DNA of 64,000 nt from Eledone cirrhosa (taxonomy: Eukaryota). The notes below the pieces were generated by a model. It worked only from the letters and a program-made list of their open reading frames with translations. It ran no database searches and was not told where the DNA came from. Made by a program: the position numbers and the translations under genes. The stretch spans positions 324,136,001 through 324,200,000 of the forward strand of contig OZ024740.1 of NCBI GenBank assembly GCA_964016885.1. Reading direction: 5' to 3'. Shown one piece after another: positions 4,162-64,000 of this stretch (position 1 is its first letter; each line of letters opens with the position of its first letter).

Positions 4162-4164
<3 letters not shown>

Positions 4165-5044
4165 GAAAAATTTACGAAATGGAAATGCGGGTATATAGAA
4201 TTTATAACAATTGTTTCTATAGTGTATGAGTTACCTATACCTCGCTATTTGAATAATACACAAATATTATCAAAAACCGAAAGTACACTGTAAGTCAACA
4301 CACCATGTCATCAGACCTTTGTATTAGAATGATATTTTCTTTTTTTAAATGCATATAATGTTACCTTTTTACACCAACGTTTGCAAATTTCTGTCTTATA
4401 TGTTTATACACTAAATATGGCTTTCTATAATAATAGTACTAAACACTGTTTTTTCTGGACCCCTTTAGAAATAACCTGCTACTATAATAGCCCTAATAAC
4501 TTGTCTGTGACATTGTACCACTTTGACCCCTCTAACTAAATTTTGTCCGAACAACACCACTAGAAGTATCTACTTCCCAGCCAACCTTAGCACGCCTCAT
4601 TAAGCTAACTGCTGCCAAAACATTCTCTCTTCACAATCTCTACTAGTCTGACAGTCTTAAACCCTAAGACTCCCTCCACCTTACTCACTTCCCTCTTCCC
4701 CTTCTCTTCCTACCTCCTTCTTTATCTTTTATCTAGTGTATAAAATATTTTCATATCATTCTAATACAAAGGTCTGATGACATGGTGTGTTGACTTACAG
4801 TGTACTTTCGGTTTTTGATAATATTTGTGTATTATTCAAATAGCGAGGTATAGGTAACTCATACACTATAGAAACAATTGTTACCTAATAAATTCTATAT
4901 ACCCGCATTTCCATTTCGTAAATTTTTCCTCCATATTTTCTCCGGATTTTAAAACACACTTTATTATACGTTGAGCAATCTCTGACGTCAGTTGACTCCA
5001 TCCAATGCAACTACTTAGTAACATTGGAATACAAATTATCTAAT
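4162..5044 (+). mobile_element. Non-coding PLE-type insertion: inverted pLTR arm, 417-bp spacer, direct pLTR arm with hammerhead, tail
   Basis: 4162-4335 is the reverse complement of 4753-4931. Tail 4932-5044; flanked by (TA)n. Confidence 0.82.
4770..4886 (+). ncRNA. Type I hammerhead ribozyme with 90-nt stem II
   Basis: AGGT-CTGATGA (4774-80)-catggtgtg...tacactata-GAAA (4871)-CAATTG-TT-ACCT. Stem I AGGU/ACCU, palindromic stem III. Confidence 0.75.
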
Positions 5045-5444: not shown

Positions 5445-5468
5445 ACAAATTCTCAGACAGTTCCCACT

Positions 5469-5660
5469 AATAATAATTGTTTCTATTTTTGGCACAAGGC
5501 TACCTATTACCCAATACATTACTGGTACTTATTTTATCGACCCCCGTAAGGATGAAACGCAAAGTTAACCTCGGTGTGATTTGAACTCACTCCGTAAAGG
5601 GCCATAACTATACTGCAAAGCATGGCGTCCGATCCTTTACCGATACTGCCAATCCACCCC
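5469..5660 (-). mobile_element. SINE family 1, full length with target-site duplication
   Basis: Head, B-box, gtcgataaaataagtaccag core, (ATT)n tail. gttcccact(a/t)ataataat duplicated at ~5460 and ~5664. Confidence 0.9.
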
Positions 5661-7157
5661 TTTGTTCCCACTTATAATAATAATACAACAGTAAAGAAAT
5701 GGTTTCTTCCTTCTTAACTTCTTCAGTCATTTATCCTATTCTTAACCCCTTCTACAATTACCCATTAACTCATTAATTCCTCTACAATATTTTCTTATTC
5801 GTCCATCAAGTCATTTACCTATGTATTTCTAGATATTTTCCTCATATATTTATATATATTTATATGTATTTTCGTTGTTTATAAATATTCTTATATGTTT
5901 CTAGACATATTTTCTTCTGTTTCTTTATATTCATTATATATATATATATATATGTATGTATAATTATACATCTTATATACGCATTTGTATATTTATTTTG
6001 CTTACATAAGTATACTCGTATATATGTATATATATGTGTGTGTGTGTGTGTGTATATTGCTTGTTTATTTACGTTTTTATTTTTGCTTGTATATGTATTT
6101 TTCTTATTTATTTGTATATATTTTGCTTATATTTGTATATATATATTTTTTTCTTGTATGTATTTTTCTTGTTTATTTGTATGTATTTTTCTTATTTATT
6201 TGTATATATTTTGCTTATATATATATATATTTTTTTTCTTGTATGTATTTTTCGTATTTATTTGTATATTTGTATATTATATTTATTTTTCATATTTATT
6301 TCTTCATTCATGTATCTATTTATTTAATTATTAACTGATTTATTAACGTATCGACTAATTTATCTTCTACCCCGCCCCACCCCATCGGACCCACCCCGCC
6401 CCCTCACGCCCATCCGGACCCCACCATCTTTCTTCTCTGTCTCAATATATAGAAAGAGAAATCTGCTCCGTCTGGCGTTGAAAGTTAATTTCCGAAGTCC
6501 ATTTGTGAGGTCAACCAAGTTCGATTAGGCTAATTTGCAATACACATATATCAACCAATCCACGCATGAATCTCATCGGTAATATTCACTGCCCACATAC
6601 ACTGACTGGTTTATATGGTGGTGGTGGTAGTGGTGGTGGTGCTCGTGGTAGTAGTGGTGGTGGTGGTAGTGCTGGTGATGGTAGTGGTAGTGGTAGTGGG
6701 GATGGTGATGCTCGTGGTGATGGTGTTATTTATGGTGGTGGTGGTGGTGGGGATGATAGTATTAGTTGTGGTGGTGGTGGTAATGGTGGTGGTAGCAGTG
6801 GTGATGGTAGTGTTTGTGGTGGTGATACTTTATATGGTAGGCGATGGTTGATGTCATGTTGTTTGCTGGTGCAGGAGGTGGTGGTAGTGATAATGTTGTA
6901 GGTGATGGTAGTAATCATGTTGTTGATGGCGGTGGTGGTAGTGGTAATAGCGATGGTTACACTTAATAAGGTAGGTGATACTGGTAGTGGTGGTCTGTTA
7001 CTAGTGATGGTGATGATGATGATAAAGACAACGTCATCATTATCAGCATCAATTAGACATTATAGTTTATATTTATAATGAATATCAAGACCAATAAACA
7101 TACGACTATGATTAAGATACGTTGTTGTATCTTATGATGATTGATGATATCAACGAA

Positions 7158-7483
7158 AATAATTGTTTCTACTTTTGGCACAAGGCCAGCAATTAATCCA
7201 GTGTATTACTGGTACTTTATTTTATCGACCCCGTAAGGATGAAAGGCAAAGCTAACCTCGGCGTGATTTGAACTCAGACCGTAAAGAGGCGTAACTATGC
7301 TGGAAAGCATGGCGTCCGACGCTCTACCGATACTGCCAATCCACCGCCAACAATAAAAATAATTTTTTTTTTCTACTTTAGGCACAAGGCCAGCAATTAC
7401 CCAGTACATTACTGGTACTTTATTTTATCGACCCCGTAAGGATGAAAGGCAAAGTTAACCTCGGCCGGATTTGAACTCAGATC
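7158..7483 (-). mobile_element. Two tandem SINE family 1 copies (full 7158-7349, partial 7355-7483)
   Basis: Repeated ggcacaaggccagcaatta..tactggtactttattttatcgaccccgtaaggatgaaaggcaaag..gatttgaactcag. Confidence 0.9.
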
Positions 7484-7780
7484 ATAAAAAAATAATGTTC
7501 AATAACATGATGAAGACGATGAAGCTGGCGATGAAGAGGATAATAATAAAGTCTTTAACGATGACGATAATAAAAATGGTGACAGTCACAACCGTTACAA
7601 AGATAATGAGAAGCAACATAAACAGTAAAATGGCGATTGTTCTGTCGTCACGAAGAAACAACAGATCATATTTCCGTCATCTAACCCTACCTAACCTTCA
7701 ACACCCCTCCCCTACATTTCTAACTCTCTTCTTTAACAAACAATACTTGACATAATATGACTGACTGTGGTGCTATGCTG

Positions 7781-7829
<49 letters not shown>

Positions 7830-8014
7830 GATAAATCTACCAAGAGTTTACGGTAGTGTCCAATCCGTATGAAGAACTCAATGTATTCCGGATATCATGG
7901 AAAGAAGAGATGTAATGAAAAATCACTTTCGGTGAAAGATAAACGGTATAAGGAGTTAAGATAAAATATTAAACAAATAATGAATAAACAATTCCTTATA
8001 TTAAACAAAAAAAG

Positions 8015-8168
8015 TTCATTATTTAACGATCGTTTCTAGGATATATATGTGTTAGAATTGGCATGCATATTCAACAGATCTATGTACAAAATTATACAAA
8101 ATTATACAAACTATCAAGATTAAATATACATACCAACACATATATACGCCGTCTTCAGAAATAATGAA
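8015..8168 (-). ncRNA. Type I hammerhead ribozyme with expanded stem II (pLTR copy)
   Basis: Minus strand: UUCAUUAUUU-CUGAAGA-[115 nt hairpin]-GAAA-CGAUCG-UU-AAAUAAUGAA. 10-bp perfect stem I, palindromic stem III. Confidence 0.8.
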
Positions 8169-8815
8169 GTATATTTATTGATAATAACAACAATTCAAAA
8201 TTTCAGGTCCGTTTGGGAACAAAATTGACCAATGAAAACACAAAGGGTTAAATGCAGTTCGGTGTGTGTATATACATGTAAAACCCTTACACATATTTTA
8301 CAAAAATGTATGTATAATTTGTATACGCATACTAAAAGGATGGATGCAAATACAAAATTTCAAGGTTAATGTCTCTGTAAGTTTATAATGCACAGATAAG
8401 ATGCGTATTGACACAAGTATGAAATTAAGTATATAAATATATTTTTTCATACTCACACATATCCGTACAATCACACATACACGCGCGTATATGCATAAAT
8501 ATACACATAACCACGAACATACAAACACACACACACCCCCACTCACATTTATATATGTGGATATAAAATCATAAGCACATGGATATTAATTCACTCACAT
8601 AAACACTGGCACACACATTTTTAGATCAAGATACAGAAATTAGGTGGGAGGAGGGGGGGGGGGAGAGGTCAGTATTCAACGGTCTGAGCAGACTGCCTAA
8701 TATAGATGTATCTATAAACTAAGAAAATAAAAATAAAAAATAATAAATAAACATTAAAGAGGAAAGAATAGAAAGAAAAAAGAAAAAAGAAAAAAGAAAA
8801 AAGAAATATATCAAG

Positions 8816-8851
<36 letters not shown>

Positions 8852-9068
8852 CACATACATATATATATATATATATATACACACACATATATATATACAA
8901 TATACATATATATACACATAGACACACACACACACATACATAAATATACACACATATACAAACACATACATACATATACACACATCCACACTAAGAACAT
9001 ACATACACACACATATATAAACATATACATATACACACATACATACATATACACATATACATACAAAT

Positions 9069-9113
<45 letters not shown>

Positions 9114-9490
9114 TACATATATATGTATATACACGTACATATACACACACATATACATATAATCACACATACTATATAGATACACATATATATAACCACA
9201 CACATACATGCACATATACAACACTTACATACTAATATACATACAGATATACACATACATAGCTATATATACACACAAATATATACAGACTTACATATAT
9301 ACATACAGACAAATACTTACGCATCTATATATCGGTATATACATACAAACACCACTACACTATCACACAACTTAGACATACAAAGAGAAAGGTATATACC
9401 TATACACACATACATATACAAATAGAAAAACATATAGATATATATATATATATATACACACACACATATATATACATATATATATATAAC

Positions 9491-9523
<33 letters not shown>

Positions 9524-9743
9524 CATATACACATACACACACATACACATACATACATGTACACACACATAGAAATATATACGCATACACACATACACAC
9601 ATACATATAAAGTCATACACACACATACACCTACACGAACATACACATACACATATATAAAGATATATATACACACACACACACACACAACACATACACA
9701 CATACACATATATATAAAAAAAATAAATAATAAAGATATATAC

Positions 9744-9800
<57 letters not shown>

Positions 9801-10147
9801 CATATATATATACATACACATACATACACACATACATAGACATACATGTACATACATACACGTACATCGATATACATACATATATATATACACACATAGA
9901 CATATACATACATACACACACAACTTACATACACACATATATATACATGTATATTCATACATAGAATTAGATATATAATCATACATACATATGCACTTAC
10001 TTATACTCATATATACAAATACATACGCATCCATATATGCGTATATACATAAAAAAACCACTACAACCTCACCTAACTCAGACATACAAATAAAAATAAA
10101 AAGGCATATGTATATACATATATACACGCATTAATAGAGATATATAT

Positions 10148-10211
<64 letters not shown>

Positions 10212-10447
10212 ATTCATATATATATATATATAGATACCCACACACACATACCACCATAAATACACATACAAACACCCACATATACATATATATACACACA
10301 TATATATATATATATATATACACACACATAAAAAACAGACATGCACATATATATATATTTTTTTACACTTATATATATACATATTATATACACATACACA
10401 ACCTCACATATACACACATACACATAAGTTATATTATAATAATAAAA

Positions 10448-10502
<55 letters not shown>

Positions 10503-10588
10503 CATATATATATATATATATATACATATAAACATATACATACATATATACACACATACGAATATAGACATATATTCACACATAGACA

Positions 10589-10632
<44 letters not shown>

Positions 10633-10848
10633 TACATATACACAGAGACATATATACACACTCACATATATATGTGTGTGCACACACACATATATACACA
10701 CATACACACATATACACATAAACACATATATGTGCATACATGCACACACACACATATATCCACATAGATACGAAGATAGACATATAAATAGAGAGACATA
10801 CATATATATACAACACACATACACACACATACATACACACACACATAC

Positions 10849-10882
<34 letters not shown>

Positions 10883-10888
10883 CTATAT

Positions 10889-10935
<47 letters not shown>

Positions 10936-12287
10936 CATACACATACACATACACACATTCACATACACATACATATATACATGCATATATACACATATAT
11001 ACATACATACACACACTCATATATACACACACAATCTTACATTCATATTTGCATGCGCATATATGTATTTTTATATTCAGATATAAATACCCAAACCTAT
11101 ATATACACCTACCTACATATATATTCATACATACACGCTTACAAATACAGATGATAATAGTATGGGGGAAAGGGGGGGTTTGGAGAAGGGGATCATAGTA
11201 AATATATGTTTCAAGAAACATAGAATATTTTCCGTATCTTGATCCAATGTATGTTTCTACATAGTTTCAGTGTTAGGAAATACAATAAACAAGAACTAAG
11301 GCAAAATCTATGCATCTCAAAATAAACAAGTATACCATTAATTATATGTTAACTAAACCAAAGATAGTTAACATATTGATTTCTAAGGTGTAAATTAGTT
11401 AGGTTTATAATATTTGAAGCAGAATTTTGAAGTTAAATAGTAGTAGAGTATTAATTATAGTATAACTAAATTAAAGTTAATAACGTTATGGTATCAATAT
11501 TAGGAAATGAATTTAGTAATAGGGAAAAAACAAATAAAATAAAGTATTACATCGGTAGTAGAATATAAATTATAGGTTAACTAAATTAAAAATTATATAT
11601 TTATTTCTATAGTATATGTTAATTAGGTATATAATACATAAAACAGATATTGTATTTTATCAATAGCATAATATAATTATATGCAAATAGAAATCAAAAT
11701 TAATACATATACATATACATATACATACACATACATATATACATATATATACACATATATATATATATACATATATACTCATATACATACATACACACAT
11801 ACACATACACATATACATATACATATTTTTTTCAAAAAATTGCATAGAATATATTAACTAGGTATATATCCAAAACACATCCCATTCTATGATTACATGA
11901 CATTCTGCAATTCGTCTGTATAAGGATACTAATTTTAAGCAAATTAAAATTAAATTTTTAGGTTGATTAAAATTAAAACCAAATTATAAATATATTTCTA
12001 AAATGTATATTAATTAGGTCTATAATACTAAAAATTATTTCTCTGTCATTGGATACACGATATTATTTTGTTATATTTTATCTGTAAAAGAATTATAATA
12101 AAAGGTTTAAATAAATTAAAATTAATCTATAAATTAAATTACTAAGTATATATTAGTAATATTTAAAGGTTTTTCACAATTTATGATTACATAATATTTT
12201 ATATTCTCATCTGTAATAAAATTTTAATTAAATTAAATTTATAGGTTAACTAACATTTAAATTAAATTAATTTCTAAAATAATGTTA

Positions 12288-13849
12288 TTAATTAGGTTTA
12301 TAATATTTAAATGTTTTTTTTAGTTTATGATTACACGATATAATTAATTCCTGTCGTTTATTTAATAAGATATCCTTAGACTTCATTATTTCAAATAGTT
12401 CTTGGGAACATAATCTACATTCATTTCTATTATTTTGATAAGGGGTGGCTCTTTTGAGCACACTCCAGGTCAAATCATATTCTATATTCTTATTTTTATA
12501 ACTATTGATTTTTTCTGCTAGAGATGTTGTATTAGCCAGTGCGGCATTTTTAAAACTATGCTTGTGGGTATTAAACCTTGTCTTAAAATTGTTAGAGGTA
12601 GCTCCTATATATGAGCAAATAGAATCTTTAGTTTTAACATTACATTTATAGACTATGTTGTTAACAAGACAATTCCCTTTTAATGGGCAGTTTGCTTTGT
12701 TTCTACAGTTACATCCTTTCGTTAATTCTGTATTTGAGGAGATATTATGGTTAATTTGATGTACTGGTGGTATACTTATGGTTTTCTTACATTTATATGC
12801 ATTATGGGCACTTATATTTTGTTTTACGTTATTTGTTGTAGAGTATGAGAATTTAACTGTAGACCTATTTAAGATTTGATGGTATTTGTGGTTTGGCGGG
12901 AAGTTTTTCTCAAGGATATAAAAAAATTTTTTAGCAATATTATCCTTAACTTGTAAATTAAAAGGAGCATTATACCAAGTAACCCGTCTATTACGGTTTC
13001 TATGTTGTTTATTATTTTTATTATTTTTATAGGTTGTATCGTGATTTTTACTAGGAGGATTAATGTTAATGATCTCACCACAACTATTTTTAGTTATATT
13101 TGTAGATTTAGGTGTTTTATCCTTTTTATTAGGAGTTTTATTATTAATATTTATTAGAGTTGTATGATGAGTAGTTTTTTGAGAGTTACTATACTTTATA
13201 TTAGAAGATTTGGTATTTTGGGGTATAGTGTGGGTGGCATTTAGGTGTGTACTTTTCATTTGGTGTTTGTTGGTAATATTATGTTGTATGCTTTCAGTAT
13301 TTTTAGTAGAAGGTATATACTCTAATCTATTTTTGTGGCCACTTCTATCTAGAGCTTCGTTATAGAAGGTCGCATTTTTATCAAATACATCTTGGTTAGA
13401 AGAAAGGTTAGAAATTCTAAGTGATATATTATATGCAAGGTTTTTAAGGATAGATTTAGGGTGATTAGATTGTGAGTGTATGTAATGTAAGTTTTGGTTA
13501 GGTTTATGGTAAGGTTGGTAGATACCCGTAGCTAAATCTAAAGTTATATCTAGGAAATTTACTACTTTACTTGTTTTTTCAAAAGTAATATTAAGATTAT
13601 AATAGTCTTTAAGGAAAGTTCTAATATGTTTTTTGTTTTTTTCAATTTCTGAAAGGCTAAGGTTGTTAGAAAGAAGAAGACAGTCATCACGATATAAACC
13701 ACCTTTGAGGTGGGGAAAAGAGGCATTTATGTTGAAAAGGAGAAAGAGGCCCACAAGATCAGTAATTTGGGCGGAATCGCTTGAACCCATAGTAATATCA
13801 AAAAGATTACTATATGTGTTTCTGGTCCAGTATTCATTCTGAAATTCAA

Positions 13850-13850
<1 letters not shown>
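12288..13850 (-). CDS. Penelope-like reverse transcriptase (C-terminal half) + GIY-YIG endonuclease, N-terminally truncated
   Basis: Frame stays open upstream of the listed ATG (IEFQNEYWTRNTYSNLFDITMGSSDSAQ). Contains FDITMGS, GLYRDD catalytic motif, NFLDITL, YIHSQSNHP, TWYNAPF, CNCRNKANC (CxCx5C), IVY...YIGAT..FKTRFNTH (GIY-YIG), CRLC, LLNKRQE, CNH. Confidence 0.93.
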
Positions 13851-13904
<54 letters not shown>

Positions 13905-14073
13905 ATTTGTATGTATATGTGTATATGTATGTATGTGTGTATATGTATATGTTTATATATGTGTGTGTATGTATGTTCTTAGTGTGGATGTGTGTATATG
14001 TATGTATGTGTTTGTATATGTGTGTATATTTATGTATGTGTGTGTGTGTGTCTATGTGTATCAATAAATATAC

Positions 14074-14227
14074 TTCATTATTTCTGAAGACGGCGTATAT
14101 ATGTGTTGGTATGTATATTTAATCTTGATAGTTTGTATAATTTTGTATAATTTTGTACATAGATCTGTTGAATATGCATGCCAATTCTAACACATATATA
14201 TCCTAGAAACGATCGTTAAATAATGAA
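14074..14227 (+). ncRNA. Type I hammerhead ribozyme with expanded stem II (inverted pLTR copy)
   Basis: ttcattattt (14074-83), CTGAAGA (14084-90), GAAAC (14206-10), GATCGTT, aaataatgaa (14218-27). Reverse complement of 8015-8168. Confidence 0.8.
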
Positions 14228-62436: not shown

Positions 62437-62877
62437 TATAGTTGAGACAGTAAACAAAAAAAAACAAAAAAACAACGTAAAAGCGAAGAGGCAGTACAAA
62501 TGTTAATATTAGTTTCACGCTTGAGAGTGGGGGGTATTTGTTCTAACCACGGAAATATCAAGTTTCGGTAATATAGGTTAACAGGTACACTGGTTTATCA
62601 AACACATATATGTATCTATCGAATCTCAAGATATCCATGTCTGACGAGGCAGTACTAGGACAGACTATATATTTCGCCGAGGAGATCTAATGAGAACGAA
62701 ACATGTCTGGAGTTATCATCGCATTGCCAATGGCAGGCTTGTTCCACATTTGCAGCATGATGAAACTTTAGCTGTACTTTTCTTTATACAATTACACAGT
62801 AAACAAAGCGACATACACAAATTCGTTCACAAGTTTCAGTCATGCTAGTACACCGCCATAAAGGGAATCAGTGGATC

Positions 62878-62996
62878 ATAATTGTTTCTATTATTGGCAC
62901 AAGGCCAGCAATTACTCAGGACATTACTGGTACTTTATTTTACCGACACCGTAAGGATGAAAAGCAAAGTTAACCTCGATGGGATTTGAACTCAGA
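62878..62996 (-). mobile_element. SINE family 1 3' part
   Basis: Core plus B-box. gtggatcataat duplicated at ~62871 and ~62998 (candidate TSD). Confidence 0.85.
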
Positions 62997-63257
62997 AGTG
63001 GATCATAATGACCTCATTACATACTCAATCAACTTTTTTTATCGACTTTATCAACTTTTTTTATCGACTTTAATTTACAGATTCGAAATAAATAACACAC
63101 ACACACAATATAGGCACCGGTTTACGTGTGTTGTATTGAAGCGAATAACTGTATACTCTGGGAATGTATCATACATTGCCCATGCAGTACGCTGAGATAC
63201 AAGCGGTACTGGCATTGATAAATATGCTGGGTCCGTCAACTCATTATTATTATATAT

Positions 63258-63440
63258 TGGATTGGCACTATCGGTAGAGGGTCGGACGCCATGCTTTGAA
63301 ACATAGAGTTACCTCCCTGTATGATCTGAGTTCAAATCCCGCCGAGGTTAACTTTGCCTTTCATCCTTACGAGGTCGATAAAATAAAGTACCAGTAATGC
63401 ACTGGGTAATTGCTGGCCTTGTGCCAAAAGTAGAAACAAT

Positions 63441-63444
<4 letters not shown>
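63258..63444 (+). mobile_element. SINE family 1, full length
   Basis: Highly similar to 17538-17725. Confidence 0.9.
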
Positions 63445-63488
<44 letters not shown>

Positions 63489-63497
63489 ATACACATC

Positions 63498-63537
63498 CCG
63501 AGCTGAAGATCCGCGAAAGTGAAACAATTGTTCTCGG
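63498..63537 (+). ncRNA. Type I hammerhead motif adjacent to (TA)n
   Basis: CCGAG-CTGAAGA (63503-09)-tccgcgaaagt-GAAA-CAATTG-TT-CTCGG. Perfect 5-bp stem I, palindromic stem III, imperfect stem II. Confidence 0.65.
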
Positions 63538-64000
63538 TATGGTGAACTAACTGTTGTGTAACCACTTCTACCTAACTCGTCTCTTGGACTGAGTGCTCTA
63601 CCACTGCGGATATTACCTTCCAGTGTTCCACCACTATATATAAAATTTAGTACAGCATCAACGAAGCCATGGTTGCAGCCAAGCTAACGAATGCAGTTTC
63701 GGTGTGCAGCTAAGCACTCGATAGGGTATATAACCCTAGAGTTATAACATTACGTTTAGACAGCTTTACAAAATGAAGACAGCGACCGATAGAAGGGCCG
63801 CAGTGACCATAGCCACGAAAAAGACTGAACTCAGGAAATACGTGTGTGTCTGCCTGTGCGTGTGTGCAAAAAGTAAACAAATAAACCAATCGATACAATA
63901 CGATGAAGAAATATAGTAGTCTAACGCTTCAAATAACAGGAACAATCTTAACGTTGTCTAAAGTGAACAACAAAATATAACTACTCCATTTCTAATTAAA

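Follow-up and report, generated by a model that had tools for sequence, protein, structure and literature searches.

A type I hammerhead ribozyme motif with a 115-nt stem II in the 3' repeat of a Hydra-clade Penelope-like element

The motif studied here is, as judged from its sequence, a type I hammerhead with a predicted cut after position 14217 of the window, by which we mean the whole 64,000-nt stretch of AT- and microsatellite-rich animal DNA that was analysed. It lies within an inverted, 5'-truncated duplicate, typical of Penelope-like element (PLE) insertions, that belongs to a young, multi-copy PLE of the Hydra clade. PLE hammerheads and their dimer design are already known, and so are the Hydra clade and the inverted copy; in the literature searched, what is new is the length of stem II, which reaches 115 nt in this family (family A) and 90 nt in a second one from the same window (family B). 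Weighing the predicted folds together with the copies found, we think it probable that the motif represents a weak, conditional PLE ribozyme in which the expansion of stem II has been tolerated and kept structured. The features on which the analysis draws are collected in Table 1.

Table 1. Positions of the element, its hammerheads and related features in the window
Feature	Position	Strand	Details
PLE ORF, 5'-truncated, Hydra clade	12288..13850	-	RT motifs B-thumb, CxCx5C linker, GIY-YIG endonuclease
3' UTR, inferred, ~4.1 kb	8169..12287	-	degenerate tandem duplications and TA/TG microsatellite
Sense hammerhead copy	8015..8168	-	core 8158-8152, predicted cut after 8025
134-nt tail, sense copy only	7827..7960	-	ends at (TA)n 7792-7826
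3' end of the element, inverted and 5'-truncated copy	13849..14281	+	
(TA)n run bounding the inverted copy	14279..14340	.	
Hammerhead, inverted copy	14074..14227	+	flagged motif, family A
Stem I 5' strand, inverted ribozyme copy	14074..14083	+	
Core box 1, CUGAAGA	14084..14090	+	
Stem II, 115 nt	14091..14205	+	43 predicted pairs, basal C.A mismatch, -40.5 kcal/mol
GAAA box, 8-nt palindrome and U17	14206..14217	+	palindrome 14209-14216, dimer-type stem III
Stem I 3' strand	14218..14227	+	
Stem I 5' 10-mer, second copy	14258..14267	+	3' of the cut; may compete for the 3' strand
Family B long-stem-II hammerhead	4770..4886	+	4-bp stem I, 90-nt stem II, palindrome ACAAUUGU
Family B 3' end, inverted copy	4162..4335	-	97% identity; adjoins (TA)n
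Family C compact Hydra-type hammerhead	63498..63537	+	motif at 63503, 11-nt stem II region, U.U base

The initial annotation had described a perfect stem I, a CUGAAGA box, a 115-nt stem II, a GAAA box and a palindrome, and all of these were confirmed where it had placed them. The type I core is complete (C3 U4 G5 A6 N7 G8 A9 / G12 A13 A14 / A15.1-U16.1 / H17), stem I consists of 10 Watson-Crick pairs, and after the GAAA at 14206 the sequence reads C-GAUC-G, with U16.1 at 14216 and U17 at 14217; H17, U in this copy, occurs as A as a variant in others. Three helices surround the core, the ends lie in stem I, and the fold constrained to this shape is predicted at -43.3 kcal/mol. The usual, though not invariant, G10.1-C11.1 pair is absent, its place being taken by C.A and then G.U; the C.A base is common to families A and B, and the 8-nt stem III palindromes are perfect in both as well as in a compact family (family C). 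When the window was shuffled block-wise 200 times with its dinucleotide composition preserved, and both strands were scanned with the descriptor, stems I of at least 10 pairs gave no match, against the two observed (the flagged motif and its copy), and stems I of at least 8 gave 0.005 matches per shuffled window. The z-score of the fold is -6.4 for the whole motif and also -6.4 for stem II of family A alone, for which none of 300 shuffles was equally stable. The hairpin by itself is nevertheless common in this microsatellite-rich window, where 77 of the 1278 windows of 115 nt fold at least as stably; it is the combination of hammerhead features that is rare.

A link between the hammerhead and a reverse transcriptase (RT) ORF had also been claimed. 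Both do belong to the same retroelement, but the flagged copy has the antisense orientation and faces away from the ORF, and the copy that shares the orientation of the ORF is an identical one that the annotation had left unmentioned, at 8168-8015 (-), in the element's 3' repeat and 4130 nt past the stop codon. The ORF (P0001) encodes 500 aa, with its first Met at 13790 and its stop side at 12288 (-), and the frame remains open and homologous up to ~13850, where it ends near the inversion junction. At this break the inverted piece is joined head to head, its source sequence lying 3-4 kb downstream: the first part, 13849-14058, copies (-)9124-8913, and the second, 14059-14281, equals (-)8183-7961 with 100% identity over 223 nt. 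Between the two parts 729 nt are skipped, with a 3-nt microhomology at the joint; a spliced intron was considered for this skip and rejected, there being no GT-AG in any register. The element unit is flanked by (TA)n on both sides. It is the anatomy of the inversion, and that only, which assigns the interval between ORF and ribozyme to the 3' UTR, the corresponding distance in relatives being 71-344 nt. Where this UTR starts (12330-11330, -), the final 150-240 nt of the ORF recur in degenerate form, and at 11121-8819 (-) there is a long TA/TG array with duplications inside it. Retrotransposition of the element seems to take ~2.2 kb of microsatellite along.

The length of this interval raises the question of whether the hammerhead module could be a separate non-autonomous repeat, retrozyme- or SINE-like, that merely lies beside the ORF. 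A distance of 4.1 kb from the stop codon is unlike that in relatives, contig coverage of the module is far deeper than that of the sequence upstream, and family B comes without an ORF, all of which would suit such a repeat. Set against this, the inverted piece adjoins the ORF break, holds 210 nt of the ORF-ribozyme interval and is identical to the local copy, there is no other hammerhead 3' of the ORF, and a simple (TA)n target pattern is seen at the outer ends only. We consider a separate repeat to be highly improbable. Non-LTR retrozymes are non-coding head-to-tail tandem units that each carry a type I hammerhead; the copies here stand in opposite orientations on either side of an ORF, with no tandem arrangement.

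The assignment of the element to the Hydra clade comes from its protein and its target. Of 6850 candidate proteins, 300 are homologous to the ORF protein at E <= 1e-5, and an alignment (n=11) shows the RT motif GLYRDD, the CxCx5C linker (C360, C362 and C368) and a GIY-YIG domain with CxxC..E..N..CxH and without CCHH; Y394-G396, R405, C458/C461, E464, N477 and C486/H488 are invariant in all 11 sequences. The RWK/DKT region is cut off by the truncation in the window and is seen in full-length homologues such as P0003, P0006 (as RWR/DKT) and P0011. Since the RT and GIY-YIG motifs without CCHH match the clade as defined in Craig et al. 2021 (PMC8557442), namely by a C-terminal GIY-YIG without CCHH, a CxCx5C linker and CxxC/CxH around E and N, and given that the target preference stated there for the clade is (TA)n, the ORF homologues, motifs and (TA)n target together identify this as a Hydra-clade PLE. 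A quick tree of 37 homologues (those of at least 480 aa among the first 70 ids, with no named clade references) groups P0001 with P0002, P0003 and P0006 (SH-aLRT 100, long branches). Pfam gave no family for P0001 and only faint GIY-YIG and RVT_1 matches in 2 of 8 homologues, a PDB profile search with the ORF protein gave no match, and no relatives were found in viral contigs or prokaryote genomes.

The initial annotation took the motif at 4770 (core 4774) to be of the same design with unrelated sequence, and this is borne out. Family B has a long stem II (34 bp, z = -5.2), a C.A base and a palindrome, and its likeness to family A is not significant: of 1000 shuffles, 384 (stem II), 838 (tail) and 654 (upstream sequence) aligned as well or better; a tail motif apparently shared by the two families was not significant and was rejected. 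Family B ends in (TA)n, no ORF was found for it, and its inverted copy has a 5-nt deletion in the 3' strand of stem I. As for the suggestion of a recurrent long-stem-II class, the design does recur in two unrelated families, but these are only two and come from one window, and the long form appears in none of the 79 related metagenomic loci that served as our comparison set.

Several further hammerheads and repeats lie in the window. Family C, which served as an internal control for compact-motif searches, has the same palindrome as family B and starts ~10 nt past a (TA)n run. A decayed GIY-YIG endonuclease of another PLE clade (41581-42124, +; tblastn E 3e-4 to P0120) is accompanied by a hammerhead-like motif at 42085, ~340 nt after it and after a (TA)n run. 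A minimal Penelope/Poseidon-type hammerhead at 21627-21596 (-) combines CUGAUGA, 13 nt, GAAACGUU and a 4-bp stem I, with no ORF seen, and there is a possible degenerate compact hammerhead at 17384-17432 (+; E 0.44 with the covariance model R1 described below). A near-perfect 113-nt palindrome at 22021-22136 adjoins (TA)n and has related sequence at 1039-1247; more long inverted repeats occur at 1372-1607 and 44310-45098, and a near-perfect 95-nt tandem repeat at 45466-45897. About 10 copies of a 190-nt SINE-like repeat are present, at 5465-5656, 7157-7488, 14568-14730, 17533-17726, 31824-32001, 57570-57938 and 62875-63446. The base composition of the window, a likeness of this SINE and the existence of a published octopus Hydra family would suit an octopus-like host.

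How unusual the long stem II is can be gauged from the comparison set, in which 66 loci reach the end of the endonuclease. A downstream hammerhead was called in 38 of these 66; in 37 of the 38 the core boxes are 10-30 nt apart and the motif lies 71-344 nt past the ORF. Of the 28 loci that gave no call, the 14 with at least 250 nt downstream were inspected and none had a long form; a call of a 135-nt stem II in L027 was rejected as the false pairing of a damaged compact motif. Two Hydra 3' hammerheads (L006:2747 and L045:1807) have a first core box with no nearby partner, in interrupted or chimeric contigs. The 42 distinct compact motifs have at the stem II base U.U (20), G-C (13), G.U (3), A-U (3), A.C (2) or U.C (1), and none has C.A. 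The covariance model R1, built from 40 of the 42 with two doubtful ones omitted, matches family C in the window (63496-63539, E 1.7e-4), and the long motifs at 4774, 8158 and 14084 are absent among its 18 matches at E <= 10. Of the 5 Rfam matches at E <= 10 none was to a hammerhead family, a miss that is expected given a 115-nt stem II; a microRNA precursor was also considered and rejected, the Rfam microRNA matches being sub-threshold only and on microsatellites. In a scan of viral contigs for the long-stem-II pattern there were at least 120 loci, none of those listed having both a stem I of at least 4 and a palindrome.

The literature searched likewise yielded no PLE hammerhead with a 90-115-nt stem II, although the dimeric PLE hammerheads of Lunse et al. 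could include long variants. The 'long helix II' in PMC13725137 is 6 bp. Among the 26 Hydra rows of File S2 in PMC8557442 all stems II are 3-7 bp with loops of up to 10 nt, against 43 and 34 bp in families A and B, and the octopus family Hydra-1_Obim has a different, compact hammerhead. Hydra-clade elements, as the same source presents them, are also usually shorter than 3 kb and have tails of 30-40 nt, whereas the present element exceeds 6 kb by virtue of its 4.1-kb UTR and the tails measure 134 (A) and 107 nt (B). In other respects the element is like them: the GIY-YIG domain lacks CCHH, the linker and the (TA)n target agree, a type I hammerhead follows the ORF in sense orientation, stem II has an additional 1x1 position at its base, and an inverted 5'-truncated copy is present. 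A 5'-truncated copy with an attached inverted 5'-truncated copy is drawn in Fig. 2 of Craig et al. 2021, where Penelope-13_HM has an inverted 5'-truncated copy too, and the same layout is described for a Cotesia bracovirus PLE.

A similar picture emerges for the metazoan PLE pseudo-LTR hammerheads of Cervera and De la Pena 2014 (PMC4209133), which are alike in being type I, with CUGANGA/GAAA, a palindromic stem III, extra nucleotides at 10/11 and an opposite-strand copy at the truncated 5' end. The descriptor in that paper has a stem II of 3-7 bp and a loop of 3-10 nt, the 56 motifs examined in its Fig. S3 are compact, and its metazoan PLE consensus keeps G10.1-C11.1, so that the flagged motif falls outside both consensus and descriptor. 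Even where a compact stem II is taken as 3-8 bp with a loop of 3-10 nt, families A and B have 115 and 90 nt instead. The longest published PLE stem II region that we found, in PLE-X1_sMoe (9 bp plus a 34-nt loop; PMC8557442), is half the length of that of family A, is a loop and not a rod, and comes from another clade and other hosts. A basal stem II mismatch in PLE hammerheads is already published, and in PMC8557442 PLE-X1_cBra (Chlamys/PLE-X, plants) has C.A at this position. U.U at 10.1/11.1 is tolerated in hammerheads, and stem II is the usual site of tolerated insertions in the engineered hammerheads covered by our sources.

The long form is not confined to the window. Words of 7835-8650 were present in 18 of the 22 runs listed, from 14 studies, with at least half of the words in 5 runs; none of these runs is recorded as RNA, which tells neither way. 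The long form recurs in many contigs and in sequencing runs of several species. Run X1 (organism A) gave 2609 contigs (identity bands 754/689/583/583), X5 gave 370, X7 gave 26 and X6 gave 412, the last mostly on a microsatellite and with one contig over the ribozyme. The ribozyme variants listed, beyond which there are 21 more variant rows, fall at 8 positions of the 154 nt and none is in the core; at that density chance alone predicts ~0.6 variants in 11 core positions, so their absence is not significant, and a core without listed variants is consistent with selection but not proof of it. A pair is kept at 3 of the 8 positions (two G.U to A-U, one U-A to U.G), two are unpaired, one is the allowed U17 to A, and two break a pair, one of them terminal.

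These contigs also bear on the possibility that the long stem II is a selected module, a dsRNA rod that would bind the element's RT or host ADAR or Dicer, which we judge unlikely, as we do the related idea that the rod would gate cleavage or mark a stall site for reverse transcription. Immediately upstream of the ribozyme (above ~8190), contig depth in X1 and X5 is lower by a factor of about 3 to 4, and in X7 two contigs diverge at 8181, close to the switch at 8183 in the window's own inverted copy; depth does not, however, measure copy number, and an excess of 3' sequence is already expected from 5' truncation by itself. No contig joint omitting stem II was found among those listed in 4 runs, and X1 has 22 A/G changes on the sense strand against 13 C/U changes, numbers too few for a test. 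The convergence of two unrelated families on a long, nearly fully paired rod with a C.A base would speak for selection, yet the rods of A and B have no common sequence, TA/TG-rich DNA pairs readily (as the equally stable windows noted above illustrate), and the listed variants include no two-sided compensatory changes. It seems to us unlikely that a PLE lineage has repeatedly turned stem II into a 35-45-bp protein-sensing rod responsive to its own RT or to ADAR/Dicer, an 'aptazyme-like' class that would be abundant in these genomes and missed by descriptor- and Rfam-based surveys.

Folding in context qualifies the reading of a weak, conditional ribozyme, which we continue to prefer. In the predicted ensembles the mid-pair of stem I has a probability of 0.016, 0.18 and 0.0 in three contexts, so stem I appears mostly outcompeted; the hammerhead fold lies 3.2 kcal/mol above the MFE and is not the predicted ground state. 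The 5' 10-mer of stem I recurs 30 nt beyond the 3' strand, and this downstream copy pairs with that strand at a probability of 0.16-0.52. Stem III contributes 0.2 kcal/mol in the monomer, and the palindrome duplex is predicted at -10.0 kcal/mol.

The disfavoured stem I and the C.A at 10.1/11.1, missing from the 42 related motifs, would suit a catalytically dead relic, passively carried by an element that can transpose without it, in which stem II ballooned once constraint was lost. In family B the inverted copy no longer has an intact stem I, and in published work insertion by PAc (Poseidon, Anolis) in vitro is unaffected by hammerhead mutants, while Naiad PLEs do well with no hammerhead at all. 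The core is nonetheless intact at all 11 positions in families A and B, stem I is a perfect 10-mer, the palindromes are perfect, the listed variants mostly respect the structure, and a non-canonical 10.1/11.1 is usual in Hydra motifs, C.A itself occurring in PLE-X1_cBra. On this balance we regard a dead relic as quite improbable. That the flagged copy is the element's own inverted duplicate is supported by the 100% identity over 223 nt between the two window copies, despite the spread of X1 contigs over identity bands.

If the motif is a weak, conditional ribozyme, it would act as a type I hammerhead in the 3' pseudo-LTR of the PLE, and, to go by its folding and by published PLE ribozymes, it may be nearly inactive as a monomer, as are other animal PLE hammerheads. 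The palindromes would let two ribozymes swap strands into an 8-bp helix III, the partners being either tandem copies on one transcript or two transcripts, and the element's protein may assist. In published work, PLE hammerheads are inactive or protein-dependent as monomers and weak as dimers, with uncut RNA as the main substrate; given this need for dimers or protein, and a stem III of dimer type, an assay of monomer cleavage could return a false negative. A likely role would be to cut tandem read-through transcripts occasionally, yielding unit RNAs. The tolerant stem II could have grown into the 43-bp rod alongside the swelling of the 3' UTR by duplication and microsatellite growth, its pairing keeping it from disturbing the core.

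The genomic copies run past the cut site and end 64 and 198 nt beyond it, and since both traverse the site, both appear to have been reverse-transcribed from uncut RNA; no useful ORF start was found 3' of the cut. By analogy with PAc (Frangieh et al. 2024, PMC11167929), reverse transcription would have begun on uncut RNA at two internal starts, 64 and 198 nt past the cut. The downstream 10-mer would keep the 3' ribozyme inactive within the template, and it could free the product after cutting. As reported for PAc in vitro, uncut RNA is the template, internal RT starts define the tail and targets are AT-rich; it differs in belonging to another clade and in having a compact ribozyme that needs protein and overlaps the ORF start.

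These findings reveal neither new ribozyme chemistry nor a new type of element. What they do indicate is that stem II of PLE hammerheads can exceed the catalogued lengths 4- to 10-fold, with two independent families at least doing so, and that long forms of this kind are missed by published descriptors, by Rfam and by a clade-specific model. Elements regarded as 'hammerhead-less' or as having a 'half-core', some Naiads for example, may therefore need re-screening, as may ribozyme counts in repeat-rich animal genomes, and the families described here offer a natural test case for whether animal PLE hammerheads are selected for catalysis.
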